From an uncultured bacterium (lineage in GTDB: Bacteria > Verrucomicrobiota > Kiritimatiellia > RFP12 > UBA1067): a stretch of DNA of 64,000 bases. Under the pieces are notes generated by a model, which was not told the DNA's origin, did no database searches, and was given only the letters and a program-made list of their open reading frames with translations. Location of the stretch: positions 5,172 to 69,171 of the forward strand of contig CACWSW010000001.1 of assembly GCA_902763655.1 (NCBI GenBank). Direction: 5' to 3'. Positions 16,905 through 63,512 of this stretch are shown here, piece after piece. The position numbers were made by a program, and so were the translations under genes. The number at the start of each line of letters is the position of its first letter. Position 1 is the first letter of the stretch.

Positions 16905-16981
16905 TGCGACTGTAGCTCAATTGGATAGAGCGTTGGCCTCCGAAGCCGAAGGTTGCTGGTTCGATCCCAGTCAGTCGCACC
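16905..16981 (+). tRNA. tRNA-Arg (anticodon CCG)
   Basis: Manual cloverleaf: acceptor GCGACTG/CAGTCGC, D-stem GCTC/GAGC, anticodon stem TTGGC/GCCGA with loop CTCCGAA, T-arm GCTGG-TTCGATC-CCAGT, discriminator A plus CCA. Confidence 0.8.
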
Positions 16982-16983
16982 AA
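16957..16983. repeat. attL core: 27-bp direct repeat GGTTCGATCCCAGTCAGTCGCACCAAT (3' end of tRNA-Arg)
   Basis: Exact 27/27 match with 63486-63512. Flanking bases differ on both sides. Confidence 0.7.
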
Positions 16984-16997
16984 TAGACAAAGCAAAA

Positions 16998-17024
16998 AAG
17001 CACTGCAAAACCAGTGCTTTTTTT
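16998..17024 (+). terminator. rho-independent terminator after tRNA-Arg
   Basis: Stem AGCACTG / CAGTGCT with loop CAAAAC, followed by TTTTTTTG. Confidence 0.5.
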
Positions 17025-17043
17025 GTTTCGTTCGGCTATTGAG

Positions 17044-17110
17044 TTATGATACAGAATATGATACAATTCCTGCCAGAGAAAAAGAACGCAATAAGGGAAA
17101 TGAGCGAAAA
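17044..17110. repeat. att-proximal repeat block (ATGATACAGAAT ATGATACAAT ... AACGCAATAAGGGAAATGAGCGAAAA); second copy at 63395-63450
   Basis: 24-bp near-identical segment (1 mismatch) plus a 26-bp related segment in the same order. It lies just inside both prophage ends. Candidate integrase arm-type sites. Confidence 0.45.
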
Positions 17111-18243
17111 TGCTTTATAAAAACAACGGCGGAAAGAACTGGTGGGTGATGTTCCGGGACCCTCGTCGGCCAGGAAAATTCATCCGCCAATCGACCGGCA
17201 CGTCCTCCATCGAGCATGCGCGGTCGATCGAGGAGGCCATGCACCTGTCGATCAAGGGCAAGATAGACGACAAGAAGATGAAATCCATCCTCGACGCAAT
17301 CTTCCCTAGGGAGCGCGAGGGATCCGGTCTGCCGATCGGCCAGCTGTGGGCGACGTACGAGCGGTTCATGTCGATGCGCGATCGCAAGCCGGGCGAACGG
17401 CTCGTAAAGCAGCGGAAGAAAAACCTCGAGGACTTCATCGAATGGACGAAGACAGAATTCCCGGTCACGACGGTCGAGGAGGTGACGTTCGACTGCGCGA
17501 TGGCGTACGCCGAATTCCTGAAGAAGAAGTCGAAGCCGAAGGACAAAAAGCACAAGGCGAAGCTGAAGGACAAGAGCCGGAAGGAATACATCGGAAACCT
17601 GTCCACGATCTGGAAGGCTGCCGAGGCGCTGTACGACGTCCGCAACCCGTGGAAGGATCTCCGTCCGGCCGTGCGCGACGGGCAGCGCCACGCCGCTTTC
17701 TCGCGCGCCCAGGAGCGCGCCGTGCTGGAGGCCGCGAAAGCGAGCGCCGTGCCGCATTGGTACGAGGCGTGCCTAATCGCCCGGTGGACCGGACTCCGTA
17801 AACACGATGTCGTGTTCCTGGAATGGAGCAAGGTGGATTTCGAAAAGGGCGTCATTCGCACGAAGCCGATCAAGACGCAAGGCTACAACATCGAGGTCGA
17901 AGTGCCGATGGTGGCCGTTCTGCGCGACGCCCTGAAGGGCCTGTTCGTGAAGGGCAGGAAGTACGTGCTTCCGGAGTTCGCGAAAGTCTATCCGGGCGAT
18001 CCGGAAGACTGCGCCTTCGCCGGGATCCTGAAGGCCGCCGGCGTGACCGATCCGACGATCACGTTTCACAGTTGGCGGCACACCTTCAGGACACGCCTTG
18101 CGGAGGCCGGAGTCAGCAACGACCTCGCAAAGCGCCTCGGCGGATGGACGCAGGACGCGACCGTGCAACGGTACGACCACGCCGACAAAACGGAGGAGAT
18201 TCGCCAGGCGCTCGAGTCTACTTCTTCTGCGGCTCGTCCTTGA
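17110..18243 (+). CDS. int: tyrosine recombinase / phage integrase
   Basis: 377 aa. C-terminal catalytic region HSWRHTFRTRLAEAGV...LGGWT...VQRYDH (R..HxxR..Y). Immediately adjacent to the tRNA attL. Confidence 0.85.
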   Translation: MLYKNNGGKNWWVMFRDPRRPGKFIRQSTGTSSIEHARSIEEAMHLSIKGKIDDKKMKSILDAIFPREREGSGLPIGQLWATYERFMSMRDRKPGERLVKQRKKNLEDFIEWTKTEFPVTTVEEVTFDCAMAYAEFLKKKSKPKDKKHKAKLKDKSRKEYIGNLSTIWKAAEALYDVRNPWKDLRPAVRDGQRHAAFSRAQERAVLEAAKASAVPHWYEACLIARWTGLRKHDVVFLEWSKVDFEKGVIRTKPIKTQGYNIEVEVPMVAVLRDALKGLFVKGRKYVLPEFAKVYPGDPEDCAFAGILKAAGVTDPTITFHSWRHTFRTRLAEAGVSNDLAKRLGGWTQDATVQRYDHADKTEEIRQALESTSSAARP

Positions 18244-21200
18244 CGCGGTAGCGGTATATCTTCCGCAAGTCGCGCACGACCGAATTGCTGTCGCTCATCC
18301 AGCGACCGGCGGCGTCGAGCATGTTGTCCCAGGTGTCGCCGTCTGAGTCGAATATCGCCTCTAGCAGCTTCGCGCCGTCGTTCACTTGGTTCTTCAGCCA
18401 CGATTCCATCGGCAGCATCGAGGAGCCGCCCTTGATCGAGTAGCCCTTGATGGCACGTTCGAGCGTGTACTTGCAGCAGAAACCGGCGACGAAGAGCGAT
18501 CCGTACGGTCCCAGGAGACACGTGATTATCCAGTCATTCAGCTCGTCTTCCGGCGGTTCCTGTCCGAGACACGCTTTGTACAGTTCCCCCATCCAGAAAT
18601 AAGCTGACGAGAGGATGAAGTGATTAAGGAGGATTGCGCGTCCCAGGCTGCCCCAGCGCTTCACCGAGTCCGGACGCGCGATCACCTCGCGGATCGCTCG
18701 CACTTCGTACTGTAGGTACTGCTGTTGCGTGGAGAGGAACTGGAACATGATGCGCCCGAGCTTGTTGCGCCGCTGGATCGAGGTCTGGTTTTCCATGCGG
18801 CCAGACTGCTGCGTCCGTTCGATGATGCTCCACGTCTCGGCCATGGCGTCGTCCTCGGACATGCCGCGATCCAAGCAGTCGCGGTAGATGCCCTGCCCGA
18901 CGACGAGAGCCGGCACGACGTCGCCCAACTTGGTCGTGATCATCGACTTCTGGAGCATACGCTTCAGCCAGCCCGCGTTCTGCTGGCTGAGCGCGTTGCG
19001 GACGGCCTCGGAGGATCCCAGGTTCCAGCGTGTGCGCCTCTGCTCGGAATCCCATATCTTGCCCATCGCGGCCATACCCTCCGGCGTGAATGCGCTCACC
19101 ATGTACTTTGCCGTGTTGACAAGCCCGATCTCGAAGCCGAACGCCGGGATCGAGGTCGTCTGCTTGGCCATGACGCCGATGTTTCCGCCGAGCGCGCACA
19201 GCGCAGTCCAGCCGCGTATCTGGTCGGAGAAATACTGGACGCCCGCCGTGGATCTGTCGTACGCGCCGTGTCCGGCCAGAATGTCCGTGATAAAGCCCTG
19301 CATGAGGTCGTCCACGGACGCGCCGTGGTTCGCCCTGACGGTCTCGCGGAGTTCGGACCGGCCGAAGATGCCGCGCATTTCCAGTCCCAGCTGCGCGTGG
19401 TGCTTCCACTGCGCGGCCTCTTCCATGCGGGACGCCCACATCGAGAAGATGTCGGCCGACGTGTCGAAGTCGCGCTCGTTCCGGACGCGCGGCGTGAGCG
19501 CCTTTGGGAATATCGTCCAGCCGACACCCTGTCCTTTCTCGAGTCCCTGCGTCTCGAGCATCATCTTGACCGGGAAGTAGTTCGGCAGCTCCGCGTACAC
19601 GCCGATCCCGAAGAGCGAATGGCATACGCCGGAGAGGTCGGAGCGGTTGTTCTCGTACCACTGGCCAAGCCATTTCAGCATGTTCATGTCAGCCGGATCG
19701 AGGAGACGCATTATCTCGGCCGCCTGTCCCTCGCGGTGGTGCTTCACGATGTTGTCGTGGTAGCCACCCTCCCAGACGGTCTTCGTCTGGCCGGGATTCT
19801 CCTCGTCCTCGACCTGAACTTTGCGGCCCTCCTGGAGGAGCGAGACGAGCAGCTGGAGCGCGCGGCCCTTGGTGGGCGTGACGCGCTTTCCGCCGACGAC
19901 GCCCATGTACTGCGTGAAGCGCTCGTCCGGAGCCATCATGTCCTTCATGACGGCGTTGAAGCTCTTGCCGTAGATTCCCTCGACCGCGGAGTGAAAGGCG
20001 TCGTTGTGGCGGCGCTTTTCGGCTTCTGACCTGTCGCCGGCCTTCTGCACCTCGCGGGCGATGTAGTCCACGATGTCCTTCACGGCTGCGGCGTCAGCGT
20101 CGGACGCGTGGCGCATGCAGTCCTGCAAAAGCGATATGAAGCCCATGTGGCCGGTGATGAAGCGGTTCAAGGCGTCCGCCTTGCCGCCCTCGCGGATGGT
20201 CGTGCGCTTCGGATCGGCGAACGCGACGGCCAGCAGGTGCGCGGCCTTCTTCGTGCGGATGTCGCGATCTGACATTTCGCGCACGATGTCGTCCGACTCG
20301 CCGCGCGCGAAGTCCTGCCACCATTGGACGGCGGCCTCTATCTCGCCGACGGGCTTGTAGCGGAGCGCGCCGAACTCCCGCAGGACATTCAGCTTGCGGA
20401 TCGTCTCGACGAACTCGCGGCTCTGGTCGCGGTCGCGCCCGGCGTCCGCGAAATCGACGGAGAGCGCGTCAAGCGTCTCTTGGAGCTGTCGGGCTTCTTC
20501 CGCCGCCGCGTCCGGAGTAAGCCACATCGCGTGGCGCATGTAGCGCGCGCGGAGTTCCGCTTCGGCCGAAACCTTGCGCTTGCCCTCTTCCTTGTCGGGC
20601 TTGAACCGTCCCTGCGCACTAAAGCTCTCCCGCAGGAACAGGTCGAGCTTTTCGCACATCTGCTTCTGCGTGTCGCGGATGCGCTGCGCGTTTATGAGCG
20701 CGCCCAGGAACTCCATCTCGGAGATTAGCCCCTGCACGGTCGGCACAGAGTCGAGCTTTGCAATGCCACGCATGGCCGTCTCGCGGCTGCGGGAGTATGT
20801 GAGGTCGCGGCAAAGCTTCGCGTAGACGCTCTGCGCCGTCTTGCGCAGGAACTGCACGGCCACGAGGTCGCGCCACACGTCGGCGTCCTTCGCAAGTCCG
20901 TGTTCCTTGATCCACTGCCGGCGGGCCAGCTCGGCGACAAAGCGCGCAAGGTGGCGCGGGTTCTCCAGGTTGAGCGCGGATTTCTTCACGGCCTCGGCCA
21001 GCGCGTCGCCCTCGGTGCCTTCGCCGGAGGAATCGCCTTCGGCCTCGAGAGCTTCCTCGCCCTCGCCCATGGCGGCCTCGTTCTCGGCGTCGCGCCCGGC
21101 GGCCGCCTTGCGGTTCTTGCGGTTCTGCTCGTCCACGCCTGTCTGTCGTCCGGACGCGGACACGATGTCGTCCACGACGGCCTTCACCTTGGCGTCGATC

Positions 21201-24200
21201 TCGACGGCCGCCTCTTCCGATTCCTCGGCGGACGCCGCACCTTCCTCGTCGGCCGTTCCCTCTCCCTCGCCGGACGTGCCCTGCGGCGCGTCCTTCTCCG
21301 TGAGAGGGTTGTCCGCAAGGTGCATGATCGTCTCGGAGAGGTTGATGCCGTAGGCGTTCTCGATCGCGCCGGAGTCCAGGCCGGTCTGGACGCGCACGGC
21401 GTCCTCCACGATCTGCGCCTGACGCTCCTCGAGCGCCGTGTTCGCCCTCGCCCCGAACGCGCCCAGGCGTGCGCCCTCGCGGGCTTCCTGACGCATCTCG
21501 CGCCCGAACTGCTCGCGCATCGTGTCGGGCAGGTGCTCGAGGACGAGGGAATCGCTCACGCCGCGCCCGATGTCGTCGCGGATGCGCCTTGCGAGCTTCT
21601 GCGCGCCGGACATGACGCGCTGCGACTCTACGCCGATCTTCGTTGTGTCCCATTCGGGATGCAGCCGGCGCATCATCTTCTGCACCGTTGTCACCTTGAC
21701 GGACCTGTCGGACACCTTGTCCGACTTCCCGAGCGCGATCCTGGCGGCGACGGCGGCGGAAAGCAGTTCCTCGTCGCTCATGCCGCGAAGCTGCGGATAG
21801 ACGAGGCCGGAGCGCGGCGCCTCCGTGGAGAAAAGAGTGCCCTGCGTAGCAGGCCAGCTCTTACCCTCTAGAAGCCCAGGCCGCCCCAGTCGTCCCGCAG
21901 CTCCTGTTCCGTCGGACGCTTCGACCAATCTATCCTCTCCACCGGGTGCCCTGCGGACTTCTCCGTAGGCGGGATCGAGGTAGTTGCCGTCTTCCCAGAT
22001 CGGCTTTTGTCCGATGGTGACGTCGTTTGAGAACTGGTCATAGTAGTCAGCCTCCTTCTTCACTAGATTATATGCGCGCGTAGGATTGTCCTGACACGCA
22101 CGTATCACGACAGGGTTGATCCAGCGGCCTGTGGCGAGCGTCCGCAGGAGCGCGCGTCCGAACGCATGGAGTATCGGGACGCGGTTGTTGTGCAGGTACA
22201 CCGTGTACCCTGCGGCATGCCAGTCCGCGATCTTCTTGCGTAGTCCCTCCGCGTCGTCCCCCAGGACGGGCAGCACGACGTTCTCGCCGCGCCGCGGATC
22301 GCCCTCTGCGCGGTTCTGGATGTCGCGGATCATCTGCTTGTTCAACATCGAGCTTTCGGCGTGGACATAGTTCGCGCCGTTACCGTCGTTGAATCCCGGC
22401 AGCTCCTTCTTGCAGGCGTCGCAGTCTAGGACGCGCGAGCGGTACCACACCGAGAGCGCGTTCGCGAACACCGACGACTTGCCCGCAGCCGGCGGCCCGA
22501 CGATGATGTCGATGCGGAAATCCCTCTGCGTCTCGTAGGACGGGTTCTGGAGCGGGATAGGTGGCAAGTCCGGACGGCCCTCGTTCGCCGCGACTATCAA
22601 CGCCTCCTCCTTTGCCGTGCCGTCCTTGCGCGTTTCCAGCGCCTCGTTGTTTTTGCCGGTGATCGAGTCCGCCATCAGCAAGTCGTATATTTTCCGGTGG
22701 ACGGCAAGGCGTTCCGGCGTCGGGTGAGGCTTGCCGTCCTCGCCGGTCACAAAAGCCGTCGGATCGTCCAGTGCCGAATCCTTGCGGAAGTTCGGAAGGA
22801 CGCCGTTCAGTATCTCGTCGGTCGCCTCGGCGGACGTTATGAGCCGATCAAGCAGCGCTGCGGTTTCTTCCGCAGACAAGTCTCCGGCGTTCAACGCCTC
22901 GTCGATTATTGCATTCAGCTCGCGCCCGATCGGACGCTGGAACTGCTTGGCCCTCGCCCATCGAGTTCCCGTTTCCGTGGACGTGCCGTCGGGCTTCAGG
23001 TAGTCCTTCAGCCCAGGCAGCAGGTCGGTGGCACCGCTTACACCGCTGCGCTCGAGTAGTCCTCTCCGAACATTTCGCAGTAGTGCTTCATCGTTGCGAC
23101 GGAGTCTTGCCGCAGCGAGACGATCTCGGAGGGTGTCAGCTCGTAGCTTGCGGAGTTCGCGGGCTTGCGACTGGGTAAGCTCGGCGACGCCGTTTGCGAT
23201 TCCTGCTTCTTTGAGTTCTTCATCGAGGTTGTTCCCGAATTTAGCATACAACGCCTGCATGGCATCGCTGCTGATTGCTATGGTATCAGAAAACTGGCTG
23301 GCCGTCAACGTGGAAATTGCGACAATTTTTCCGCCGCGCGACTGTATGTACTTGCGCAGTTCGTTCAACGTGCCGCCCTGCGTCACGTGGTCGTCCACGA
23401 GAATGTATTCGGCGCCGCGCTGGACGGGGCCAGAGAACGTAGCCACGCGCATCATGCGCTCTACGGCGTTCGCGCCGGTGTGGTTCGCCCGCACCGTCTG
23501 CACGATCCCGTCTGCGAAGCGAAGCCCTGTGATCCTGTGGATCATGAATGCGTACGCGGCGGGAATCTTGTTGCGTCCCGTTGCCTCTTCGGCGTGGACG
23601 TAGGCGACGATCGCGCGCGGATGCTCTGCGGCGAGCGCGCGAAGCTTCTCCCATTTCGGATTTTTCTTCTTCCCGTCCGTCGCCTCTCCCAGGATGTTCC
23701 GGACAAGCTCGAGCGCGGCACCTTCGCTTCCGGCCTTGGCCCGCGTGTGCAGGTCGAGCCACTTCTGCTTGACGCTGGCGAGCGTGGTCTGGATCATCAC
23801 CTTCGGGAAGTTCGCCGGCCACGGCTGGACGGCGCCCTCGACGGGAATGCCCTGCATGATCTCGCGCTTGCGCATCGCGTCGGTTAGTTCCCTCGAGACG
23901 GAGTAGCGCGCTTCTCCAAGATCGACGCGGCTGGTTCGGCTGTCTGTGAGACGGTTGACCTTCTTGTTGTCAACGATGAGGGGATCGTAACTCCTGACGC
24001 TACCCCATTTCCCCGACGCATCCTGCCAGAGAACGTCCGTCACGTTTCCGTTCTCTATTTGGCGGTATATCGCTTGCTGCGCGGCCATGCCGTAGTCGTC
24101 CATCGACTGGTCGCCGACTACGAACAGGAACGCTCCGCCTGTTGCGCCGCGATAGTCGGCCAGGATGTCCGTGATCCTCTTGTCGTCGGCACCGTCGAAC

Positions 24201-27200
24201 GTTTCCGTCGGGACGTTGGCGACCGACGTTACGAAATTCGCCTTGCTGTCAACGGTTATGAACGTCAGCATCTTGCCGCGTTCGGATGCCATGCGCTGGA
24301 GTCGGGCGTAGAACACGGCGATGTTGTCGAGGCCGAACTTCTCCCCGCTCTCTCTCAACGAGTCATGGAACGCGGCATTGTCCTTTGTTGGCTTCTCGAA
24401 CGGATTGCCATGGAAGGACGCCTCCAAATCCGCTGCGCTCATGCGGCGGATGTTGTAGTCGCCCCATTGGTTCATTTCGGCGTATTGGTCATGGTCGATG
24501 ATGACATGCCCGTCGAGAAAGACGCCCTGCCGGTCGAAGTACGTGCGAAGCTCTCCCGTCACGTTTATGTCCGCCCGCGAAGGGAACACATTCCCGGACG
24601 GGTGGTTGTGGAGAAGCCACACGCCGTCCGGCTTCACCTTGGCGATCATGCGCTCGATCTCGGCGTAGGTGTTCTCGCGCGGCGTGTGCACCGTCGTCGC
24701 GGACGCGCCAGGAAGCCGCGCCGTCACGCCGGTCTGCCAGACAACCTCGCCGTTCCTGGTGAAGATGTAGCGGAAAGTCTCGAAGCACGGGTTCCTGTAC
24801 ACCTGCGCGAGCGCGGCCAGGTCTTTTGCCGTCCTTATGGTCTTTCCTATGAGCGTCGTCCGCGCCTCGCCGTGGAAGTCGCGGTTTATCGAGTTTCCCA
24901 GCTCCGTTCCGCCGATCTGGTCGAGGACGCGCTGCGCCTCGGTCTGCGCGGCGCGGAGGTTCGTCTTCTCGGTCTCGGAAAGCCCCTCGGTCGAGACGGA
25001 GTAGCGCACGTCGGGGTTGCCGGAAAATTCGCCGTTGTTGTCGGTGGCTGACTTTACCTGCGCGCCGCCGTCAAGCGGCACGTAGCTGACGCCTCGCAAA
25101 GTATAGCCCTGCTCGTTTTCCGCTGGGTCGCCGCCCTCGTCGTAGACGATGCCGTCGTACTTGTCGCCGAAATTGTCCTTCAGGAACTCTCCGTCCACGA
25201 CCGACGCCTCTCCCCAATCAAGCGCGCCAGATTTGCCGGTCTGGAATTCGTGGTCGGGATAGGCCTTCTTCAGGTCTGCGAGGCATTTCGGATCGCGGAT
25301 GTCGAACGGACGGCGAATGTCCAGATAGTATGCGCGGACATTGCCATATCTCTTGGCATACTCCTGATCGCCAGTGAAGTACGCCTCGGGCATCACGACG
25401 CCCTTGCCGGTTTCCTGTGCCAGAGGATCGAACGCTGCGCCCCGGTAGACGACAAGCGGCTCTCCGTTGGCGTCTACTATTTTTGAACAATCTTCATTGC
25501 CCGGATTGACGCCCGAAAGGAAATATGATATCTTACGGTCCGCATGAGGCTTACGGCCCGTGCTTCCAGCGCCAAGGCTACCGGTCTGACTTCCGGCAAG
25601 ATTGGCGCTTGCATTATATACGAAGACGTCCGACACTTCGGCAGCATGCACCAGATTCTTGTCCGCCACCGTAGAGGTTTTGCTCTCCCGCACGGTGAAG
25701 TGTACGAAAAACTCTCCTTCGGCGCTCTTGAACTTGTTGACGTAATGGTGATAGTTCTCGATGTTAGAGGTGTGGTCCTTGTGTCCTTCGACCGGGTTTT
25801 CCTTTTCGCTCCAGCATCTGATCGCGCTCTCGAAGAGTTTCTTGTATGCAGCGACATACTTGCGCTGATAGACCATCTTTCCCGCCGTGTTCCCCGGGAA
25901 ACGCACCTTGCGCCCGTCACGGCCGTTGGTGACAATGCCGAAGTCCACAAACGCCTCGGCTATTGCGTCCTTGTTCGCCAAGGGCTGTACGCTTGAAATG
26001 TCTACCGTGGCGATTCCATCCAATATGCCTGACGCTTCTATGTCGAACCAGCGTTTCGTTATCTCAGCCTTCTCCCAGTCGCCGAACCACTTCTTAAACG
26101 TGGGCGTCCTGACCATCACCCACTGGCTTTCGTTGAGCCGCGTAGGTTTCCCGTTCGGAGCCTTCATCCAGCCGCGCTTCTTCGTGCCGTCCTCGTTTGT
26201 GTAGCGGGCGACAACTTCGTCATATTCGAGTTGCGCCTGCGGCGACAGGCTGAACCGCGCGCCGCCCTCGCCGGCGGCCCTCTGCGCGGCCATGACCTCG
26301 GCGCGGGTGGCTGGCGTCCCGCCGAACATGTCCTCCGTCTCGGTGTTGACTGCGCGGGCGTTCTTGATGTAGTCCGCCAGGTAGCCGGAAATGAGGTCGA
26401 TGACACGCTTCTTCCCCGCCTCGCTCTCCACGTCCTCGCGGTCGAACGAGCGCAGCTGTTCGGATTTTGCGAACAGGTCGCCCAGGATTCGCGCCTCGTC
26501 CGACGGCGCGCGAAACATGTCGCCCTGCGACATGAACGCCTCCCATGAGAGGCCTCGCTTGCGCGTCCCGTCCTTGGCCGTCTCGCGCCAGTCGTGGCGC
26601 GTCTTGCCTTTCTCGGTTCTGGCCGTCTCGTCCTTGTCGCGCCATTCCGTGAAGAGCTGCAAGGCCTCCGCGAGCGGAGCGCGCAGGTCGTAGGCTGGCT
26701 TCGCGTCCGCGAGCGCCATCAGCTCAGGCGTCATCTTCATCAGCGCGCGCAGCTCGCTCTGCATGTCGAGACGTCCGGCGTTCGACATGATCTTGTTCAA
26801 GAGCGCGTTGTTCCCCTCGCCGCCCAGCAGCACGGCGAGCGCGGCGTTCTGGATGCGCGTCTGCCCCTCTTCGGTGAGCGATCCGTCTTCCGCGACCATG
26901 CCCTGCGCGCCGGTCTCCTGGCGGAACTTCCCGATGGCGTCGCCGCTCTTCGTCTCGTCGATCCGTCCGTCGGCCCGGAACTCCATGCGCGGCAGGAGGT
27001 TGTTGTCGATCAGGATCTTCGCGTCGTTCGACGCCTGTTCGCGGACGTTGAAGCCCCGGTTCTGCGACTCGTTCGCGAGCCGCACGACCTCGTGGACGTC
27101 CGCCTTTCCGTCCGGAGACTCGATGCGCTCGAGCACGAACACCAGAAGCGGCTTCTTCACGTCGTCGCCGATCTCGATGCCGCGCCTGGCTGCATCCTCG

Positions 27201-45143: not shown

Positions 45144-45153
45144 CCGTCCTCCG

Positions 45154-45615: not shown

Positions 45616-45697
45616 TGTCGTTCCTTTCGGGATTGCCCCGCCGTCCGCGAGAGCGTAGTAGACGCGGACGGCGGAGCGGTTTTACGCATTGCCTTGG

Positions 45698-46138: not shown

Positions 46139-46156
46139 TGTCTTTCCCTCCTTGGA

Positions 46157-55782: not shown

Positions 55783-55988
55783 ATCCCGCCTTCCTCTTCG
55801 CGCCTGACTTCGATCACTTCGATGTCGCGCATTTCCGCAAGGTCGCTCGGCGTGGGCCGGTTGTAGCTGCGGTCGTCCATGACGAGCCGGTACTTGACGT
55901 TCCTGGCCGCCTTCGCCCTCGAGACGGCGAACGTCCTGCGCGTCCCGCAGTCCGTCCTCACCGTCCACCAGCATTTGTCCCGTTCCAT
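55779..55988 (-). CDS. small hypothetical phage protein
   Basis: 69 aa. ATGA overlap with the primase start. Confidence 0.3.
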   Translation of the reverse strand: MERDKCWWTVRTDCGTRRTFAVSRAKAARNVKYRLVMDDRSYNRPTPSDLAEMRDIEVIEVRREEEGGI

Positions 55989-56003
55989 GCCTTGCTCCTT
56001 TCC

Positions 56004-56141
56004 TTAGAACGTCACCGTGGCCGTCAGCGTCGCCGCCGCGATCCAGTAGATGAACCTGCGCCAGTCGCCGCAAGCGGCGTACACTACCGCCGCAGCGACG
56101 TCCAGGACGATCAGCGCGACCGGAAATATCTTCGCAATCAT
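56004..56141 (-). CDS. small membrane peptide
   Basis: 45 aa hydrophobic peptide (MIAKIFPVALIVLDVAAAVVYAACGDW...). Confidence 0.25.
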   Translation of the reverse strand: MIAKIFPVALIVLDVAAAVVYAACGDWRRFIYWIAAATLTATVTF

Positions 56142-56320
56142 TTCTTGCGCTCCTTCCTTGGCTTGTAGCGCTTGCGCATGTACCCGGCCATGTACGCGTT
56201 GTACATCATGCGTTTCCCCCATTCGCAGCTCGGCGCGTCCGGCGGGCGCATCTCGGCCCGATGGACGCACCAGCCGCGATCGAACTTCGGGCATCGCCCG
56301 CATGTCCGCTTCCGCTTCAC
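56138..56320 (-). CDS. small Cys-rich basic protein (zinc-ribbon-like)
   Basis: MKRKRTCGRCPKFDRGWCVHR... Its stop overlaps the downstream start (ATGA). Confidence 0.3.
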   Translation of the reverse strand: MKRKRTCGRCPKFDRGWCVHRAEMRPPDAPSCEWGKRMMYNAYMAGYMRKRYKPRKERKK

Positions 56321-57864
56321 GCCGCCTTCCTCCTTGGCACATTGAACAGACCGGCCTTACGATGCCGCTTGTGTTCCTTCTTAAGGAACGCCGCGATCCG
56401 ATCCGCGAACTCGCGCACTTCTTCGGGCGGTGTTGTATTGCCTTTGAGATAGCATTGGCTCACGCGCCAGTTCCTGCGGTCGATCTCGATGTCGCAGTAG
56501 CTCTTCCCTCCGAGGCCCAGCATCACGATCAGCCTGTCGCCCTCGACGATGCCGCGACCGTAGGTGCCGTTGCCGACGCAGTTGCCCATTCGCCGCCCCT
56601 CGGCGCGAAGTTCCTTCTGCGTCTTCGCCAGGACGAGCGTATAGCCGCAACCCCTGAGCGTCGCCGTGCGCTTCAGCGACTTCTGGAACGCCTCGATCTC
56701 CTCGAAGCGCACCTTCATCGTCTTTGCGATCCATTCCCTCTCGGCCTTTTCCTCCGCCTTGCGGCGCTTCTTCTCGGCCCGTTCGCGTATTTCCTCCAGC
56801 CGCGCACACTCGCGTTCCAGTTCCTCCAGGCGCGCCATGAACGCCTTACGGCCGCCGCGCGTCGGAGGGTAGAGGGTGCCGTCGTTCTTGAGGTCAAGCC
56901 CGGCGTCGAAGGCATGCTGGATGTAACGCCCGTACTCGTAGCCGTCCACATGCCATTTCTTCAGCAGCCCCGCGAGCCGTTCGTAGTCGAGTTTGAGCCT
57001 GACGCCTGTACGGTCGTTCCCGGGATATTTAAGATGCCAGCGCATGCTGTCCAGCTCGTGGGAAAGGTTGTGTACGACGATTTCGTAATGATGGCGCGCA
57101 TCTTCCAGCGTCGTGTCGTGACGCGCCGCCCAAAGGACGTACTTGATCGGCAGATGGCTGTGTTTCCGCAGCATCGCCATGTTGTCCTTCGCCCATTGGA
57201 ATATGCGTTTTTGCTTCAGCGCCTTCAGCCCGGCCGGGTTTATGAAGCAGTAAAGCCCGCACTTCGCCAGCAGCTCGACCTTCGGCTCCCGACGGTAGAG
57301 AGCAAGCCACTCCATCAGACCTGTGTTGCATGGCACGTCGTCGTCGTACTGGCAGTATTGGTACCGTGTTCCCTCCAACGCCTGTGGGTTCACGGTTTCG
57401 TCGAATGTGCGGTTGAATCCAGGGCGACCGTGCTTGAAGTCCATGTGGTAGGACCTGTCGTCAACCCGCCTCCCTATCCGGAACTTCTCGCCCGCGCGCG
57501 GCTTCCGCTTGCGGTAGTCGCTTTTCGCCCACCGGACCGTCCATCCGGCAATCCCGTAATAGGACATGTCGCGGTATTCCTGCCAGCCTGTTTCCGGACG
57601 CATCCACATGACTTCCTTGACGATCGGCACGTAGTTCACGTCCAGACGCACGGCCACGTTCACGATGCAGACCTCTTTCTTCGTCGGCTTGTCGTAACCT
57701 AACACCTCCGCAAGGCTCTTTTCCTTGCGTTCGCATGGCACGATGTAGTTGTACCTGATCGTCCGCCGGTTGAATTTCTTCATCCGGTCGATCCGCCGGT
57801 AGAATTCCCTGTACTGGCGGTCGAACTCCACGACCTCCGCATACTGTTCGTTGGTAAGCATCAT
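56317..57864 (-). CDS. PcfJ-like protein (tentative)
   Basis: 515 aa. The C-terminal region containing GRRMGNCVGNGTYG resembles PcfJ-family proteins, as I recall them from conjugative elements and phages. Confidence 0.35.
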   Translation of the reverse strand: MMLTNEQYAEVVEFDRQYREFYRRIDRMKKFNRRTIRYNYIVPCERKEKSLAEVLGYDKPTKKEVCIVNVAVRLDVNYVPIVKEVMWMRPETGWQEYRDMSYYGIAGWTVRWAKSDYRKRKPRAGEKFRIGRRVDDRSYHMDFKHGRPGFNRTFDETVNPQALEGTRYQYCQYDDDVPCNTGLMEWLALYRREPKVELLAKCGLYCFINPAGLKALKQKRIFQWAKDNMAMLRKHSHLPIKYVLWAARHDTTLEDARHHYEIVVHNLSHELDSMRWHLKYPGNDRTGVRLKLDYERLAGLLKKWHVDGYEYGRYIQHAFDAGLDLKNDGTLYPPTRGGRKAFMARLEELERECARLEEIRERAEKKRRKAEEKAEREWIAKTMKVRFEEIEAFQKSLKRTATLRGCGYTLVLAKTQKELRAEGRRMGNCVGNGTYGRGIVEGDRLIVMLGLGGKSYCDIEIDRRNWRVSQCYLKGNTTPPEEVREFADRIAAFLKKEHKRHRKAGLFNVPRRKAA

Positions 57865-58289
57865 TCCACCTCGCCTTTCTGATAAAGAGCATGTGCCGAT
57901 GCTTCTGGGTCTTGCTCATATTGCAGAATCACTCGCTCGCCGATAAACAACACATATCGGTTCTTCGGGAACTCGCCCAGCTCTTTGGCCCGCACCGGAA
58001 CATTCGCTCCGAGGAACAGATATACCGCGCCCTCGTCACGACCGGCAATGAAAGCCATCCTTGGCGAGAATCTTCCATATCCGTTCTGGAACTCTATGAC
58101 TGGTGTCTTGCCTTCGCACATACGCTTCTCCCAGTTCTCGATGCGCTTCTCCCAGTACGGCGTTGCCTCGCGGAACTCGACCTTCTTCATGCCGGAGTCG
58201 ATCATCCTGTACCAGTGGCTCTTCAGTCCAAGGTGCAGGACGGCGCACTCGCTTCGCTTCAGCCTTCTGTTCTGCGCCCCAGGTATCAT
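57861..58289 (-). CDS. ASCH-domain protein (tentative)
   Basis: GMKKVEFR fits the GxKxxExR ASCH signature. 142 aa. Confidence 0.4.
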   Translation of the reverse strand: MIPGAQNRRLKRSECAVLHLGLKSHWYRMIDSGMKKVEFREATPYWEKRIENWEKRMCEGKTPVIEFQNGYGRFSPRMAFIAGRDEGAVYLFLGANVPVRAKELGEFPKNRYVLFIGERVILQYEQDPEASAHALYQKGEVE

Positions 58290-58504
58290 ACCGCACCACC
58301 TTTCTCTTCGTTGTCTTCTTCTTCGTCCTCTTCGACATCTTCGTCACACTCGAGCACGTCGGCTATCCGCTCTAGCGCATCCGCCGCGCGCGAAATCGAA
58401 TGGATGACATGGAACAGCCATGCAATGCCGACACCGGCAACACAAACGACCGTAAACAGACCAAAGGCCGGGAACAGAAATTCTTTCAGGAACTGCATCA
58501 TCAT
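58286..58504 (-). CDS. small membrane protein with acidic tail
   Basis: 72 aa. One TM segment and a DEDVEEDEEEDNEE tail. Confidence 0.3.
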   Translation of the reverse strand: MMMQFLKEFLFPAFGLFTVVCVAGVGIAWLFHVIHSISRAADALERIADVLECDEDVEEDEEEDNEEKGGAV

Positions 58505-58785
58505 CCTTCCACCTCGCCTTCGTTCTGAGTTGCACTTGCGCCAGGGACAGTCCTCGGAGGTCTTAGGCTACCCGCACAGACTGTCCCCGGCGTAAGATTA
58601 TTTCCGCTATTGTCGGCGCCATGCCCCCTCCGCAAAAGCGTCCTGGCCCCATCGAGCCAGTTGTCGCAGTCGTCGATGAACTCCTTCATCTGGCCCTCGT
58701 CGCAGTTCTGCTTGATGATTTCGCGCAACGTCGCAATCATCGGCTGCGCCTTAAACACCAGGTCTATCGCTTTAACCGGCTTCAT
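58501..58785 (-). CDS. small hypothetical phage protein
   Basis: Start at MKPVKAIDLVF. ATGA overlaps on both sides. Confidence 0.3.
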   Translation of the reverse strand: MKPVKAIDLVFKAQPMIATLREIIKQNCDEGQMKEFIDDCDNWLDGARTLLRRGHGADNSGNNLTPGTVCAGSLRPPRTVPGASATQNEGEVEG

Positions 58786-59009
58786 GACTTCACCTCGCCT
58801 TCGCATATCCGCTGGAATATGTCTGAGAGCACAAGCCATTCCTTATCCCATTTGGCCGACGCATCTACGCAATTCATTACGCGCGCGAAATACATTCTCT
58901 TCAAGCCGTCAAGCAGATCATGGAAACAATTTTCGCTCAGCTCTCTTATGGGGATCTTCCCGGACAGAACATTGTCGATCAGTTCCTGTTTCTCTTTGTC
59001 GTCCATCAT
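58782..59009 (-). CDS. small hypothetical phage protein
   Basis: 75 aa (MMDDKEKQELIDNVLSGKIP...). Confidence 0.3.
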   Translation of the reverse strand: MMDDKEKQELIDNVLSGKIPIRELSENCFHDLLDGLKRMYFARVMNCVDASAKWDKEWLVLSDIFQRICEGEVKS

Positions 59010-59539
59010 TCCACCTCCCGCTCGTCCACCTCTGCGGCATACCAGTCCGCCGTGTGTGCGGCGATGATCTGCTGCGCGAAAGCCTTCATCGCCGCCCGGA
59101 ACTCGCTCTCGGAATACTCCTTGCCGACTCCCCACGGCCCCATGTGGAACATGATAGCAGCGATCTCCTCGCGCATCAGCTGGATTCCCAGTTCCGCCGC
59201 GATCGCAACGGAGCATGCCCCGTGCCCGTGATACTCCGGCTGCACATACTCCCACTTCTCTTCCTCGCCAGGCACGGCGCGGTAGCACCGACACTTCACG
59301 AGGTCGTGAAGCATCCCCACGAGATACGGCGATTCCTTGCGCGGCCAGTACACGCACAGCGCACCCGTGAGCGCGAGCAGCCGCCGAGTCACATTCACGC
59401 TGTGCCGCATCAGCCCACCGTGCTTCGCCAGGTGGTGTCCCTTGCTGGCCGGCTGCGAGAAATATCCCATTCCACGCATCGCTGTCGTGACCGGTGCGCC
59501 GATTCCCGCAAACGCAAGATAGGTTTCAGCGTCGCTCAT
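59006..59539 (-). CDS. HD-domain phosphohydrolase
   Basis: Start at MSDAETYLAF. H..H (KGHHLAKHGG) and HD (MLHDLVK) metal-binding motifs. Confidence 0.55.
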   Translation of the reverse strand: MSDAETYLAFAGIGAPVTTAMRGMGYFSQPASKGHHLAKHGGLMRHSVNVTRRLLALTGALCVYWPRKESPYLVGMLHDLVKCRCYRAVPGEEEKWEYVQPEYHGHGACSVAIAAELGIQLMREEIAAIMFHMGPWGVGKEYSESEFRAAMKAFAQQIIAAHTADWYAAEVDEREVE

Positions 59540-59680
59540 TTCTCCGTCCCTCCTTCCGACGACTTCTGATCTTGTTCGTCTTTGTCGTTCCATGGCCAGA
59601 AGGCCAAGAGAAGCATTGAGATAAACACGCCCGTCGCGATGTTTGCCGCAAGTATGTTATACCCATTTTCAAACATCCTT
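59537..59680 (-). CDS. small membrane peptide
   Basis: 45 aa, MFENGYNILAANIATGVFISMLLLAFWPW... Its stop overlaps the HD gene start. Confidence 0.25.
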
Positions 59681-60358
59681 CACCTCGCTTTCCTGTTCCG
59701 GCGTTTCCAGCATCTCGAAGAAGAAGCCCTGCTGCTGTTTCGGCTTCTTCGCCTTGGCCTTGGCTTTCGCCTTGGCCTGGCGCTCTTTCTCCTTCCTTAT
59801 CTCGGAAGGCGTCTCGGCCGTCTTCTTCGGCTTCGCCTTCTTCTCGGTCTTCGTCTTCGCTTGCCGCGCCGGAGCCTTTGCGGGCGCGTCCCAGTCCGCC
59901 GGCACGTCCTCGAACCAGTGCATCGCGATCGCGTACACCACGGCCGGGTCGATGTGGCCGCTCGATCCATGCAGCGCTTTCCTTGCCACGGCCTCTATGA
60001 ACTTCCAGCAGCCCTTGGCGTCCTTGCCCTCGGCCTTGCATCGGGCCTTCAGCTCGTCGGTCGCGTTCTTCCGGAAGTATGCCTCGACCGCTTTCACGGG
60101 ATCCGTCGGGTCGATGTCGCCAGCGTCCTTGATGAAACACTTCCAGGCTTCCTCCACCCAGTCGCGCTTCTTTGTTTCCGTTTCCGGCTTTTCCGTTTCC
60201 GAATCAGGCTTTTCCGTTCCCGAATCAGCCTTTCCCGTTTCCGAATCAGCCTTTCCCGTTTCCGTTTCGCCGGGCCTGTTCGCGGCCCGCTCCTTTTCCG
60301 AGAATCCTTCGGCCTCCAATGGCACACCGTCACCATCCAATTCTACCTTTTCGCTCAT
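59669..60358 (-). CDS. hypothetical phage protein with acidic repeat N-terminus and Lys/Ala-rich C-terminus
   Basis: 229 aa. ETGKADS tandem repeats encoded by three copies of a 21-bp DNA repeat (~60199-60262). Confidence 0.4.
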   Translation of the reverse strand: MSEKVELDGDGVPLEAEGFSEKERAANRPGETETGKADSETGKADSGTEKPDSETEKPETETKKRDWVEEAWKCFIKDAGDIDPTDPVKAVEAYFRKNATDELKARCKAEGKDAKGCWKFIEAVARKALHGSSGHIDPAVVYAIAMHWFEDVPADWDAPAKAPARQAKTKTEKKAKPKKTAETPSEIRKEKERQAKAKAKAKAKKPKQQQGFFFEMLETPEQESEVKDV

Positions 60359-60361
60359 ACC

Positions 60362-61471
60362 TCAGCCCTCCTTCCTGTAGGGCATGACGACCGCCACCCA
60401 CGGCAGCGCGCATGTCAGCTTAATCGGCTTCCCGTCGCCCTCGTCGAAATGGAGCGTGAAGTCGTCCTCGTCGATAGACTCCAACGCGTCCTTCATCAGG
60501 CGCGGATTCACGCGGAACTCGCCTTTCACGCCCTCGTCCATCTTGCATGCCGCCATGCTCGCGTTCGCCGCCGTGATGTCGTTCTTCGCCTCGAACACGG
60601 CGCTCGTGTTCTTCAGCGTGATCTTGACGCCGCTCGCCTCGTCGCTCGCGAGAGCGGCCCGGCCCATCGCTTCCAGGAACGCTCCGCGCTTCAGCTCCGC
60701 GCGGTGCTTCTGGTTCTTCGGCACGACCTGGCGCCAGTTCGGGTACTTGTCCGCCAGAACCTTCGCCGTCATTATCCACGTGTCCCCGACGATCTGCACG
60801 GCCGATCCGTCGAACACCACATCGACGTCGTTCTCCTCGTCCATGCGTTCCAGAAGCCCGTAGAGGATCGCGACCGTCTTTGTCGGCAGGGTGATGTTCA
60901 TTCCAGGCTGCGCCGCGTCCGCCACGTCTTCCTTCTCGACATGCGCAAGCCTCCGTCCGTCGGTCGCGGTCATTCCGAGCATGCCGTCCTTCAGGTCGAT
61001 GTTCACGCCTTCCAGGTTCTTCCGCGTCGTGTCCGTAGAGACGGCGAACTTCACCTTCCGCAGCATTTCGCGAAGGGTCATGCACGGAAGGCTCAGCTTC
61101 GCGCGCGCCTCGGCCTTCGGACCGGCCATCACCGGGAAGTCCATCGCATCGCCGGCCGCGAGCTTGAACTTCACGCCGTTTGCCTCTATGGCCAGCCTGT
61201 GGTTGGCCGATTCCATTTCCACCTTGCCCTCCGGCATCGCGCCGACGAACGACGCGAACGCCGTGCCGGGAACCGTCACCGTCCCCTTGTCGCGAATGTC
61301 GCCGTCCATGCGCCATTCGACCTGGACGTCGCCGTTCGAGCCTGTCACCGACAGGCTTCCGCTCGCGTCCAGCCTGATCTTGCTGAACGCGCTAAGGCCG
61401 TCTTTCGTGACAAGCCCCTTGACTGCTTGGGCCGCCTCCGCAAGTGCGGCCCTCGTTATCGTAGCTTTCAT
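60362..61471 (-). CDS. dnaN: DNA polymerase III beta sliding clamp (phage-encoded)
   Basis: 369 aa. Three-domain clamp pattern and typical N-terminus MKATITRAALAEAAQAVKGLV...IRLDASGSLSVTGSNGD. Confidence 0.8.
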   Translation of the reverse strand: MKATITRAALAEAAQAVKGLVTKDGLSAFSKIRLDASGSLSVTGSNGDVQVEWRMDGDIRDKGTVTVPGTAFASFVGAMPEGKVEMESANHRLAIEANGVKFKLAAGDAMDFPVMAGPKAEARAKLSLPCMTLREMLRKVKFAVSTDTTRKNLEGVNIDLKDGMLGMTATDGRRLAHVEKEDVADAAQPGMNITLPTKTVAILYGLLERMDEENDVDVVFDGSAVQIVGDTWIMTAKVLADKYPNWRQVVPKNQKHRAELKRGAFLEAMGRAALASDEASGVKITLKNTSAVFEAKNDITAANASMAACKMDEGVKGEFRVNPRLMKDALESIDEDDFTLHFDEGDGKPIKLTCALPWVAVVMPYRKEG

Positions 61472-61666
61472 CTATTGTTTCTCCGTTTGATTCGCCAGCT
61501 CCGTCTGGCGTCCGTCCTGGCGTTCCGCCAGAAGTCCTTTGCGTTCCAGCCGCTCGCGGATCGCAAGCCGCGTCTGCTGGTTTATCGTTCCCTCGGAATC
61601 GTCCGCGAGAGTCTTAAGCCCCGCGTACCATACCTCCGGCACCTTGACATGTATCACCGCGTCCAT
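61472..61666 (-). CDS. ribbon-helix-helix (Arc/CopG-type) DNA-binding protein
   Basis: 64 aa. Beta-strand IHVKVP, then helix / GT loop / helix (INQQTRLAIRERLER). AGGAAGGAAG RBS. Confidence 0.45.
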   Translation of the reverse strand: MDAVIHVKVPEVWYAGLKTLADDSEGTINQQTRLAIRERLERKGLLAERQDGRQTELANQTEKQ

Positions 61667-61679
61667 GATTCTTCCTTCC

Positions 61680-62072
61680 TCAAACCATCCCGCTCCTCGG
61701 CAACGGCGCGAAGCCGTCCTTCCGGAGCTGCGGGCCTCTGCGCCCGCTCCGCGCGTACGGCCCGTCCGGCGTCTTCTCCTCGAGCGCGGCGATCGTCTCG
61801 TCCGTCCACCACCTTTTCGCGTACGCCTCGCTAACCTTGTGCGCGACACGTTCCAGCCAGCCGTGGATGTCCTCGAAGCAATAGACGGTCTGCGTACGCT
61901 TCTCGTCGCTCTCCCAGTTTCCCTGCCGCGCGCGCACCCAGCCGCGCTTCCATACCGCCTTCAGCACGGCGACGTTTATGCCGAACTGGTCCTTGACCTG
62001 ATCCGGCGTCCCCCAGCGCATGTCGTAGGGCCTTTCGCGCTGGCCGAATATCTCGCTCGCCGTCTCGCTCAC
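61680..62072 (-). CDS. hypothetical early phage protein
   Basis: 130 aa ORF in the early leftward operon. Confidence 0.35.
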   Translation of the reverse strand: MSETASEIFGQRERPYDMRWGTPDQVKDQFGINVAVLKAVWKRGWVRARQGNWESDEKRTQTVYCFEDIHGWLERVAHKVSEAYAKRWWTDETIAALEEKTPDGPYARSGRRGPQLRKDGFAPLPRSGMV

Positions 62073-62452
62073 AGTAGCCTCCCTTGTTCCATCGGATCGG
62101 CCGCCCGCGCCGGTGCGACTGGCTGCATCGGCGCGGCGGGCTTCTGCACCGGCTCCGCCGGCTTGTCAGGAATCACCTGCTTCTCGGCCTTCCGCCAAAT
62201 CTCCCTCACGCGCTCGGGCACCTTCGGCGGGGTCGGCGCCTCGCCCCGCTCCTCCGCTTCCTTCGCGGACACCGCGAAGTCGTCGATCAGTTTCCACATC
62301 AGCGCGTCTCCGACATGAGGCGCCTGGAACGTCAGCCACTCGGTGACGGCCTTCCAGTAGTCCGGGAAGGGGAGGTCGCTGGCCTTCGTCACGTTCGGCC
62401 AGCACCTCCTCGCCGCCTTCGCGAGCGACGTCTTTACCTCGCCAGCCGTCAC
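62069..62452 (-). CDS. hypothetical early phage protein
   Basis: 127 aa. ATGA overlap with the neighbouring gene. Confidence 0.35.
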   Translation of the reverse strand: MTAGEVKTSLAKAARRCWPNVTKASDLPFPDYWKAVTEWLTFQAPHVGDALMWKLIDDFAVSAKEAEERGEAPTPPKVPERVREIWRKAEKQVIPDKPAEPVQKPAAPMQPVAPARAADPMEQGRLL

Positions 62453-62661
62453 GGCCTCGCCTCCGTGCCAACTTCTTCGAGGTCGTTGATCGCGCTCGAC
62501 TGCGGCGGCGTCGCGGCGAGATACAGCCAGAAGAGAACGACGCCGAAGATGGCCAGCAGGATCCCGCCGATCACCTCCAAGATCGCCTGACGCCTCAGCT
62601 TCCGGCGAAGCTCGCGCTCCTCCGGCCGCTCGGTTTCCCTGTACCAGTCTTCAAGATTCAT
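62449..62661 (-). CDS. small membrane protein (first gene of leftward early operon)
   Basis: 70 aa. One TM segment ILLAIFGVVLFWLYLAA. Confidence 0.35.
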   Translation of the reverse strand: MNLEDWYRETERPEERELRRKLRRQAILEVIGGILLAIFGVVLFWLYLAATPPQSSAINDLEEVGTEARP

Positions 62662-62681
62662 TCATGCCTCCCATCTTCGGA

Positions 62682-62764
62682 TGTGCGCACACCCAAGGTG
62701 TGCAAAAAAAATTAGGTGTTATCACGCAAGCGCGGACATGCCCGCCTTGCGGGATGTGCGCACA
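62682..62764. promoter_or_regulatory. early control region: two ATGTGCGCACACCC operators (62681-62694, 62754-62767) flanking a hairpin
   Basis: Core TGTGCGCACA is a perfect 10-bp palindrome. There are two copies here plus a third at 63173-63186, all with the identical 14-bp sequence ATGTGCGCACACCC. Confidence 0.5.
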
Positions 62765-62869
62765 CCCTACGGCCAGAAGAAATCGTGCGTATTCTGCGCA
62801 CGTATTCCTCCGGAGAAAAGCCGCGTTTTGCAGCCACGCGTTCGAGCTTGCTTCTGAATGATTCTTGAT

Positions 62870-63136
62870 TCATCCGTTCACCTCACTTTTCTTGACTATT
62901 TCCTCGACTACTTCTACCGCTTCCTTGTGCTCAGGCGTGACCTTCCCTTTGGAGTCGATGACGCCCATGCCCAAGGCAAGAGATTCGATGCCGCGCCAGA
63001 TGACGTCGGTCAAGGTCATGTTCTTCTGCTCGGCGATGTAAACCGCGATCGCTTTCTTGTGCGGTTCGACATAGACGCCGATGCGGACTTTGCCCTGTTT
63101 GTGTCTTCCTTTGCGAGTTGTTTTTTTCTGATTCAC
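62870..63136 (-). CDS. RHH-type (CopG/Arc-like) phage repressor
   Basis: GTG start with AGGAG RBS. KVRIGVYVEPHKKAIAVYIAEQKNMTLTDVIWRGIESL matches the beta-strand, helix, loop, helix RHH pattern. Operators lie on both sides. Confidence 0.5.
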   Translation of the reverse strand: MNQKKTTRKGRHKQGKVRIGVYVEPHKKAIAVYIAEQKNMTLTDVIWRGIESLALGMGVIDSKGKVTPEHKEAVEVVEEIVKKSEVNG

Positions 63137-63173
63137 GATTCTACTCCTGATGACGGCGTAAAGTATATCAAAA

Positions 63174-63183
63174 TGTGCGCACA
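63174..63183. promoter_or_regulatory. third TGTGCGCACA operator upstream of the repressor gene
   Basis: Identical 14-bp ATGTGCGCACACCC ~40 bp upstream of the repressor start. Suggests autoregulation. Confidence 0.45.
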
Positions 63184-63485
63184 CCCGTCAACCACAAATT
63201 TACACTTTTTTACACGCCCCAAAAATGCTATAATATGGGGCGTGACGGTGAAGCATATTCTCTGCGCCATGTCGATTGGCTTGATACTCTGGTCTGTACA
63301 CGACCAGAGCTACTACGTCGCCGTCGTGGGCTGCCTTTGTCTATTGGGGTCTGCGTTCTACAAGGGGTAAGTCATGGCTATAGCCCGCTGGTTTTTATGA
63401 TACGGAATATGATACAATGAAAGAAAACAATAAGCGAAATGAGCGAAAAACCCCCGAAAAACCACCCCCAGAACCCCGGGGCCTC

Positions 63486-63512
63486 GGTTCGATCCCAGTC
63501 AGTCGCACCAAT
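63486..63512. repeat. attR core: 27-bp direct repeat GGTTCGATCCCAGTCAGTCGCACCAAT
   Basis: Exact copy of 16957-16983. Only the tRNA 3' portion is present here, so this is not a second tRNA. Confidence 0.7.

Follow-up and report, generated by a model that had tools for sequence, protein, structure and literature searches.

We conclude, with a probability of roughly 0.9, that the 64,000-nucleotide stretch of DNA analysed here (the window) contains a complete, apparently intact temperate podovirus prophage, which occupies the interval between two exact copies of a 27-bp sequence and is site-specifically integrated at the host gene for tRNA-Arg(CCG). A prophage in a tRNA gene is ordinary biology, and the one feature of real interest in this insert is a giant, cassette-swapping protein encoded near its integrase end. 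The boundaries of the element, which carry the argument, are defined by the following features.

16906-16982, + strand: host tRNA-Arg(CCG), restored intact at attL (ARAGORN, Rfam)
16958-16984: attL core, the 27-bp identity segment (exact repeat)
17110-18243, + strand: tyrosine integrase, 377 aa (PF00589, phrog_1)
63486-63512: attR core (exact repeat)
63531-64000, + strand: host dapF, which extends past the end of the window

The tRNA is the only one that ARAGORN finds in the window, and Rfam concurs. The 27-mer, GGTTCGATCCCAGTCAGTCGCACCAAT, is composed of the last 25 nucleotides of this tRNA followed by AT. It occurs exactly twice in the window, a count that is unchanged when up to three mismatches are allowed, and it had no match in 100 shuffles. 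Outside this core, sequence identity ends abruptly on both the left and the right, and from copy to copy the insert measures 46,528 bp. An earlier note on this DNA had already reported the exact 27-bp att duplication, with its second copy at 63486-63512, as well as the tRNA-Arg(CCG). The duplication was borne out and the identity of the tRNA stands, whereas the coordinates given for it (16905-16981) were one base too low. The same note had placed the integrase beside attL and dapF immediately after attR, and we agree on both counts: the integrase gene lies 126 bp from the core, and the ATG of dapF (63531) is 18 nt past attR. Upstream of the tRNA, its nearest neighbour in the host is the gene for an aldose 1-epimerase (15788-16843).

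The exact protein sequence of this epimerase was looked up in public assemblies and the occupancy of the site was read from each contig. Eight independent rumen metagenome contigs from different samples (L002-L004, L006-L010) carry an empty site, in which the epimerase and tRNA-Arg are followed directly by dapF with nothing between, the arrangement that the earlier note had predicted for related genomes without the insert. In all eight the sequence equals, base for base, the attL left flank, the 27-bp core and the attR right flank. The site is occupied in a 113-kb rumen scaffold (L001) and in two similar places, where the same integrase and giant gene follow the tRNA, and one further host contig (L005) breaks off at the tRNA, which is what a polymorphic site would lead one to expect. 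The exact epimerase was found on 27 contigs, the exact integrase on three and the exact portal protein on four. From the empty sites and the minority carriage of phage genes it follows that the 27-bp repeat delimits variable content and that the boundaries are base-precise, as had been claimed for them. Most host populations are without the element.

Relatives of the phage provide evidence of a free form. A search of IMG/VR with the portal protein returned relatives at 82-86% identity. One of these, IMGVR_UViG_3300033463_000243 (the sister phage), was joined without conflict from four pieces; its ends overlap by 127 bp, so that it represents a circularly assembled genome of 46,519 bp. Its attP consists of the right-end sequence, an identical 27-bp core and, contiguous with these, the integrase side, with no tRNA body. 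A second attP junction lies on the metagenome contig JAEEGH010104195.1 (L028). Over the 1,272 nt that run from its core to the end of the integrase gene this contig and the window are 90.5% identical, and in the ~130 nt next to the core only one base differs. Two more relatives, L018 and L023, occur as insertions in tRNA-Arg(CCG), the latter in a Kiritimatiellae metagenome-assembled genome (MAG). The insert and the circular sister are colinear from the integrase to the regulator, with each larger gene full-length and in the same order at 40-94% amino acid identity; they differ in the fibre genes, in small early open reading frames (ORFs), in the slot beside attP and in the middle of the giant gene. 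By this comparison none of the major genes of the insert is truncated, which, with both att cores exact, upholds the impression of an intact element that the earlier note had formed.

With regard to the host, no taxonomic marker gene lies in the window. When genomes were scanned with the C-terminal part of the giant, relatives turned up in a sheep-rectum Kiritimatiellae MAG and in a MAG labelled Lentisphaeraceae, and all of the named homologues of the N- and C-terminal modules of the giant come from Kiritimatiellae MAGs. The host flanks of related lysogens have no genes in common with the flanks in the window.

Is the prophage still able to leave its site? Several observations weigh against a complete and functional phage. 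No ORF matched an excisionase or recombination directionality factor in Pfam or PHROGs (weak evidence, such proteins being small and diverse), and the same two collections led to no recognised endolysin or holin among the ORFs of the insert. The attP of this exact phage was not found in IMG/VR or in the JGI metagenomes, and a search with a shorter pattern recovered only the attP of a relative; a free form is thus demonstrated for relatives only. Inactivating point mutations in the phage are possible, and the host, probably a ruminant-gut Kiritimatiellae bacterium, is named only from the hosts of relatives. The lack of a recognised excisionase or lysis gene and the attP not found in the collections searched are what one might see in a cryptic or defective prophage, one that arrived by the same integration mechanism and no longer excises or forms particles. 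We consider this improbable, since the insert is colinear with a circular sister of the same size (46.5 kb) with all large genes full length, the att cores are exact and the motif residues of the integrase are kept. Moreover, a phage that is less than 30% identical to its nearest relatives in culture can be expected to have lysis and excisionase genes that go unrecognised. To suppose instead that the metagenome assembly joined phage and host contigs through the 27-bp tRNA fragment would be consistent with the derivation of the window from a metagenome scaffold and with the break of host contig L005 at the tRNA. We give such a chimera next to no credence, because both junctions lie within one 113-kb scaffold and two more similar places are recorded, because 27 bp is far under assembler k-mers of the kind seen (the 127-bp overlap), and because other assemblies (L018, L023) contain independent lysogens of relatives at this very tRNA.

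A temperate podovirus is also what the gene content of the insert indicates. The genome is high in GC and spurious long ORFs are common in it; reading frames were therefore chosen by third-position GC (GC3). From right to left on the - strand, a regulatory region, early genes and a primase-helicase are followed by the small (TerS) and large (TerL) terminase subunits, portal, scaffold, capsid, cement-slot protein, fibre block, tail tubular proteins A and B, internal virion proteins, a 623-aa protein and the 4,280-aa giant.

56317-62661, - strand: early and replication genes, including small ORFs
60362-61471, - strand: DNA polymerase III beta-clamp homologue
59006-59593, - strand: HD-domain protein
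56317-57864, - strand: PcfJ-like protein
52789-56073, - strand: primase-helicase, 1,094 aa
52189-52695, - strand: terminase small subunit
50624-52192, - strand: terminase large subunit
48421-50166, - strand: portal protein of T7 gp8 type (PF12236, 1.5e-81)
47295-48071, - strand: scaffold/protease-like protein with an N-terminal run of TTTPPA repeats
46157-47206, - strand: major capsid protein, 349 aa (phrog_212, 5e-32; Bbp17, 1.7e-33)
45698-46138, - strand: 146-aa protein at the place where BPP-1 has its cement protein Bbp16 (phrog_427; weak match to Pfam Bbp16, E = 0.036)
40077-45615, - strand: tail accessory/fibre block with a lipoprotein, secreted proteins, a DUF1353-like protein (phrog_1158) and fibre-like proteins of 525 and 245 aa
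39050-40054, - strand: tail tubular protein A (phrog_394, 9e-17)
34274-39037, - strand: tail tubular protein B, 1,587 aa, oversized (phrog_376, 9e-85; BPP-1 Bbp13, 6.6e-40)
33732-34478, - strand: internal virion protein-like (phrog_308, 7e-4, weak; start uncertain, probably the ATG at 34277)
32911-33744, - strand: internal virion protein-like, 277 aa (phrog_418, 1.4e-9)
31023-32894, - strand: 623-aa protein in the slot of T7 gp15 and BPP-1 Bbp11 (no family match)
18218-31060, - strand: giant polyvalent protein, 4,280 aa, 27.6% of the insert

The markers of the T7 supergroup and of BPP-1-like phages are present in the form of a gp8-type portal, an HK97-type capsid protein and tail tubular proteins A and B, and the internal virion block that comes after the tail tube genes has its phrog_418 and phrog_308 matches, the latter weak, in the expected positions. 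No ORF matched a phage-encoded single-subunit RNA polymerase or a T7-type DNA polymerase, the only replication genes being the primase-helicase and the beta-clamp homologue, and because neither polymerase was found, the phage is not T7 proper (Autographiviridae). By portal the nearest cultured phages, all less than 30% identical, are Cobetia Carin1, Pseudomonas AF and epsilon15, and the best match of the tail tube is Bordetella BPP-1; the phage is a short-tailed, BPP-1/epsilon15-like temperate podovirus.

Like the phages of this group, BPP-1 (Rauchvirus) among them, the insert is temperate with a tyrosine integrase, and its 27-bp core from the tRNA-Arg has a parallel in the attP of BPP-1, a 27-nt copy of the 3' end of tRNA-His. 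Gene order is held in common with BPP-1 for TerS, TerL, portal, scaffold, capsid, cement, tail tubular A and B, internal virion, mid-size and very large proteins, and homology is detected by blastp for the portal (Bbp21, 1e-41), capsid (Bbp17, 1.7e-33) and tail tubular B (Bbp13, 6.6e-40). There are also differences: identity to BPP-1/epsilon15-like phages is just 25-30% and the insert is without a DNA polymerase, a diversity-generating retroelement, a CI/Cro pair or a recognisable endolysin. In addition, its tail-fibre genes precede the tail tube genes, unlike those of BPP-1, and its host is probably a member of the Kiritimatiellae whereas those of BPP-1/epsilon15-like phages are proteobacteria. 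The large proteins differ as well, that of the insert having 4,280 aa with polyvalent enzyme domains and no similarity to Bbp10, which has 2,052 aa.

Some details of the gene map merit comment in their own right. The tail tubular protein B is about twice the length of BPP-1 Bbp13 (681 aa), and its homologues match only residues ~1125-1572 and short N-terminal stretches, which leaves ~1,000 residues without explanation. In the scaffold/protease-like protein the first ~100 residues are mostly tandem TTTPPA in two runs, which is odd for a scaffold. The fibre block (40077-45615) is the region most diverged from the sister phage, and a search with the 623-aa protein returned no related viral contig. 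An ORF at 45612-47012 was considered as the capsid gene and rejected as being in the wrong frame, since GC3 and phrog_212 put the capsid at 46157-47206. The beta-clamp homologue is a full three-domain protein, and the phage has a primase-helicase yet no DNA polymerase, which suggests that it recruits the host replicase.

The tyrosine integrase inserted the phage by recombining two sites, the host tRNA gene and the phage attP, in which the 3' end of tRNA-Arg(CCG) is present as a 27-bp copy. The integrase is identified by PF00589 (6.4e-20) and phrog_1 (1.5e-36), and the motif residues TGLR, HSWRH, GGW and QRY can all be read in its translation. The following features flank the two att cores.

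16856-16884, + strand: sigma70-like promoter of tRNA-Arg, TTGCCA-17-TATCAT
16994-17023, + strand: phage-borne hairpin and T-run terminator, just past the tRNA
17044-17113, + strand: P' arm repeat module, TTATGATACAGAATATGATACAAT ... AATAAGGGAAATGAGCGAAAA (candidate arm-type integrase sites)
63199-63236, + strand: outward-facing promoter-like sites
63269-63370, + strand: 33-aa hydrophobic ORF in the variable 'moron' slot next to attR
63395-63452, + strand: P arm repeat module, TTATGATACGGAATATGATACAAT ... AATAAGCGAAATGAGCGAAAA

Both ends have in common an arm module of ~60-70 bp made up of two ATATGATAC-type repeats and then AATAAGsGAAATGAGCGAAAA. The motif is enriched above chance and recurs in relatives, and we read the modules as candidate arm-type integrase sites; that of the P' arm overlaps a promoter-like site for the integrase gene, TTGAGT-17-TACAAT. 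Two observations touch on these sites. In the host, the -10 region of the tRNA promoter, GTATCATAT (16878-16886, - strand), matches the arm motif of the phage, ATATGATAC, in reverse complement, which may be a coincidence or a host-side binding site. Among the relatives, L024 (CAYQUI010000011.1, 12723-14000) has a giant C module that is 87% identical, a related integrase, and the arm motif and terminator, without an adjacent tRNA-Arg core; this relative apparently uses another attachment site.

Both relatives with an attP share with the window the hairpin terminator on the integrase side of the core. Integration restores the tRNA and at the same time sets the phage terminator directly behind it, shifting dapF 46.5 kb away from the tRNA promoter that it normally follows. 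In the empty site dapF starts 18 nt past the core, which leaves no space for a promoter of its own, and in the lysogen the insert separates it from the tRNA promoter. The right end of the phage probably drives dapF in the lysogen, which is plausible because outward-facing promoter-like sites are present there, no + strand terminator was found between those sites and attR, and the tRNA promoter is cut off. The slot beside the attP/attR core holds small membrane-protein genes of differing size, 33 aa in the window, ~180 aa in the sister phage (L017, ~9070-9609) and ~100 aa in L028 (~70-366), as is typical of a moron (lysogenic-conversion) site.

The control of lysogeny is probably also located at the right end, in an 88-aa protein and three 16-bp palindromes.

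62870-63133, - strand: conserved 88-aa candidate regulator with a Shine-Dalgarno sequence and a GTG start
62679-62694, 62752-62767 and 63173-63187: three near-palindromic copies of GGATGTGCGCACACCC (operator candidates)

The palindromes sit at the promoter of the 88-aa gene itself and upstream of the early operon, at the head of this long, leftward set of genes. The promoter, TTGACG-18-TATACT (63191 to 63162), overlaps the third copy, and at the same place the sister phage has an apparently different palindrome. Homologues of the 88-aa protein form 11 clusters, and the counterpart in the sister phage is 40% identical. Set against a regulatory role, the protein has nothing in Pfam and no significant family or fold match: the best PDB sequence match is the pRN1 protein ORF56 at E = 0.36, and an AF2 model (pLDDT 75.8) gave no Foldseek match below E = 2 in the PDB. 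The pRN1 protein ORF56 is a ribbon-helix-helix protein. The 88-aa gene is a candidate regulator, no more, favoured by the operator-like sites and the promoter context. The earlier note had put a repressor next to attR, and none is recognisable there. Its likely source is a 170-aa ORF on the + strand (62858-63370), which we rejected as a repressor because it has no Pfam or PHROG match and is antisense to the conserved 88-aa gene.

The giant protein is encoded by a single ORF of uniform coding-frame composition (GC3 0.83), and its length of 4,280 aa was also obtained by an independent pipeline. Segments of the giant, from the full ORF of 4,314 aa, were used to search a set of 5.8 billion proteins, and the protein was compared with five near-full-length relatives and 25 fragments. 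Its predicted parts are as follows.

Residues 1-~1610: N module
Residues 1210-1307: ddrB-ParB, inside the N module (Pfam, 37.5 bits against a cut-off of 27.6)
Residues ~1708-1794: LPD3 (Pfam, 23.5 against a cut-off of 27, thus below it)
Residues 1863-2012: ART-PolyVal (Pfam, 45.6 bits against a cut-off of 31.2)
Residues 2135-2196: RadC/JAB (Pfam, 35.7 against a cut-off of 22.1)
Residues ~2437-2656: PRTase-like (phrog_22413, 1.9e-44; weak PRTase and XopC similarity)
Residues 2847-3004: Zeta_toxin kinase (Pfam, 27.7 against a cut-off of 22.3)
Residues 3076-4280: C module, predicted all-alpha

The N and C modules are conserved at 45-95% identity across relatives, and they keep to 70-94% between relatives whose central modules have been swapped, whereas the content between recurrent junctions at ~1610, 2385 and 3075 varies. 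One relative's giant is without LPD3-ART, in another the JAB-PRTase-Zeta region is replaced by a second LPD3-ART and MuF_C, the circular sister has LPD23 and MuF_C, and a further relative has MutS_I, LPD23 and ART. Word-based searches found 19 homologues of the N module and six of the C module, in this phage lineage only.

By its predicted domains the giant is a polyvalent protein, with at least two unrelated enzyme domains, a phage context and an architecture that varies among homologues. This class was described by Iyer, Burroughs, Anand, de Souza and Aravind in 2017, who read its members as packaged and injected with the DNA (PMC5512222). As in the published class, ART-PolyVal, ddrB-ParB, RadC/JAB, Zeta toxin and LPD3 are combined in one polypeptide of a phage with a portal and terminase, and architecture varies between homologues (PMC5512222). 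The giant differs from that class in that its array is set between modules of ~1,600 aa (N) and ~1,200 aa (C), and in that its gene stands where a podovirus has gp16, with no fusion to MuF or to a portal. T7 gp16, like the giant, is encoded by the last gene after tail tubular A and B and small internal virion proteins, and the predicted all-alpha C module may be counted as a further likeness to T7 gp16 and internal core proteins; on the other hand, the giant is three times longer, with no similarity in sequence or fold detected and no transglycosylase found.

What, then, is the giant for? We infer from its position in the gp16/Bbp10 slot, the neighbouring internal-virion PHROG matches and the published reading of the class that it may be a packaged and ejected carrier. 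Its conserved N and C modules would hold it in the core of the capsid and see it through the ejection channel, and the enzymes in its centre (ART, JAB, PRTase-like, Zeta kinase, ParB) would set to work on the host as the DNA enters. In its full form the proposal is of a core/ejection protein serving as carrier, with fixed ends for packaging and tail passage and swappable host-targeting cassettes between them, a natural plug-and-play delivery system. The cassettes (LPD3-ART, JAB, PRTase-Zeta, MuF_C RNase, MutS_I, LPD23) are exchanged at the few recurrent junctions among phages otherwise 80-95% identical. We hold the proposal tentatively, at a little under even odds. Counting against it, the N and C modules had no match in GenBank phages (tblastn), Pfam, PHROGs or the PDB, and a mediocre AF2 model of the C module (pLDDT 60.7) had no Foldseek neighbour in the PDB (best E 0.2). 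Furthermore, no homology of sequence or fold to T7 gp16 or any other known ejection protein was found, nor did blastp and phmmer find any match to BPP-1 Bbp10.

These negative results, the finding of no lytic transglycosylase domain in the giant, and a mass of 470 kDa that is very large for a T7-sized capsid would fit a protein that is neither packaged nor ejected and that acts inside the cell in which it is made, or else externally, as part of the tail or as a toxin, its gene position being incidental. We think this unlikely, though by no means negligible, because tail tubular A and B and two internal-virion PHROG matches come immediately before the gene, which puts it in the slot of T7 gp16 and of the 2,052-aa Bbp10 of BPP-1. 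With regard to size, the N4 virion RNA polymerase has ~3,500 aa and would be a precedent for the ejection of a protein of similar size. The Pfam domains, moreover, were defined on polyvalent proteins, published as packaged and injected, and the N4 virion RNA polymerase is named among the packaged exemplars (PMC5512222).

Two side observations remain. In L018 (IMGVR_UViG_2799112320_000004) a second giant ORF (8-9655, + strand) codes for at least 3,216 aa, ART-PolyVal and MuF_C domains among them, and stops shortly ahead of the tRNA-Arg (9797-9873), on the opposite side from the integrated relative. There could be two elements flanking one tRNA, or a polyvalent gene retained by the host. In the host flank of the window, just upstream of the integration site, lies a queuosine-precursor cluster (13372-15060, + strand) with QueC, PTPS/QueD-like and radical-SAM QueE-like genes, at which Rfam detected no riboswitch.

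We conclude that the insert is of value as a clean, verified example of integration, with attL, attR, attB and a relative's attP all documented, and as a complete temperate phage of a poorly sampled host group, probably rumen Kiritimatiellae, for which a full-text search of a library of papers found no phage of this kind described. If the proposed takeover of dapF is true, expression of the host's diaminopimelate epimerase gene would depend on the right end of the phage. The giant protein shows cassette exchange at short evolutionary distance while its flanking modules stay fixed, and its cassettes provide a clearly delimited group of enzymes that are candidates for host takeover or anti-defence. 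If it is indeed a carrier, such enzymes would be delivered at the very moment that the DNA enters the cell.

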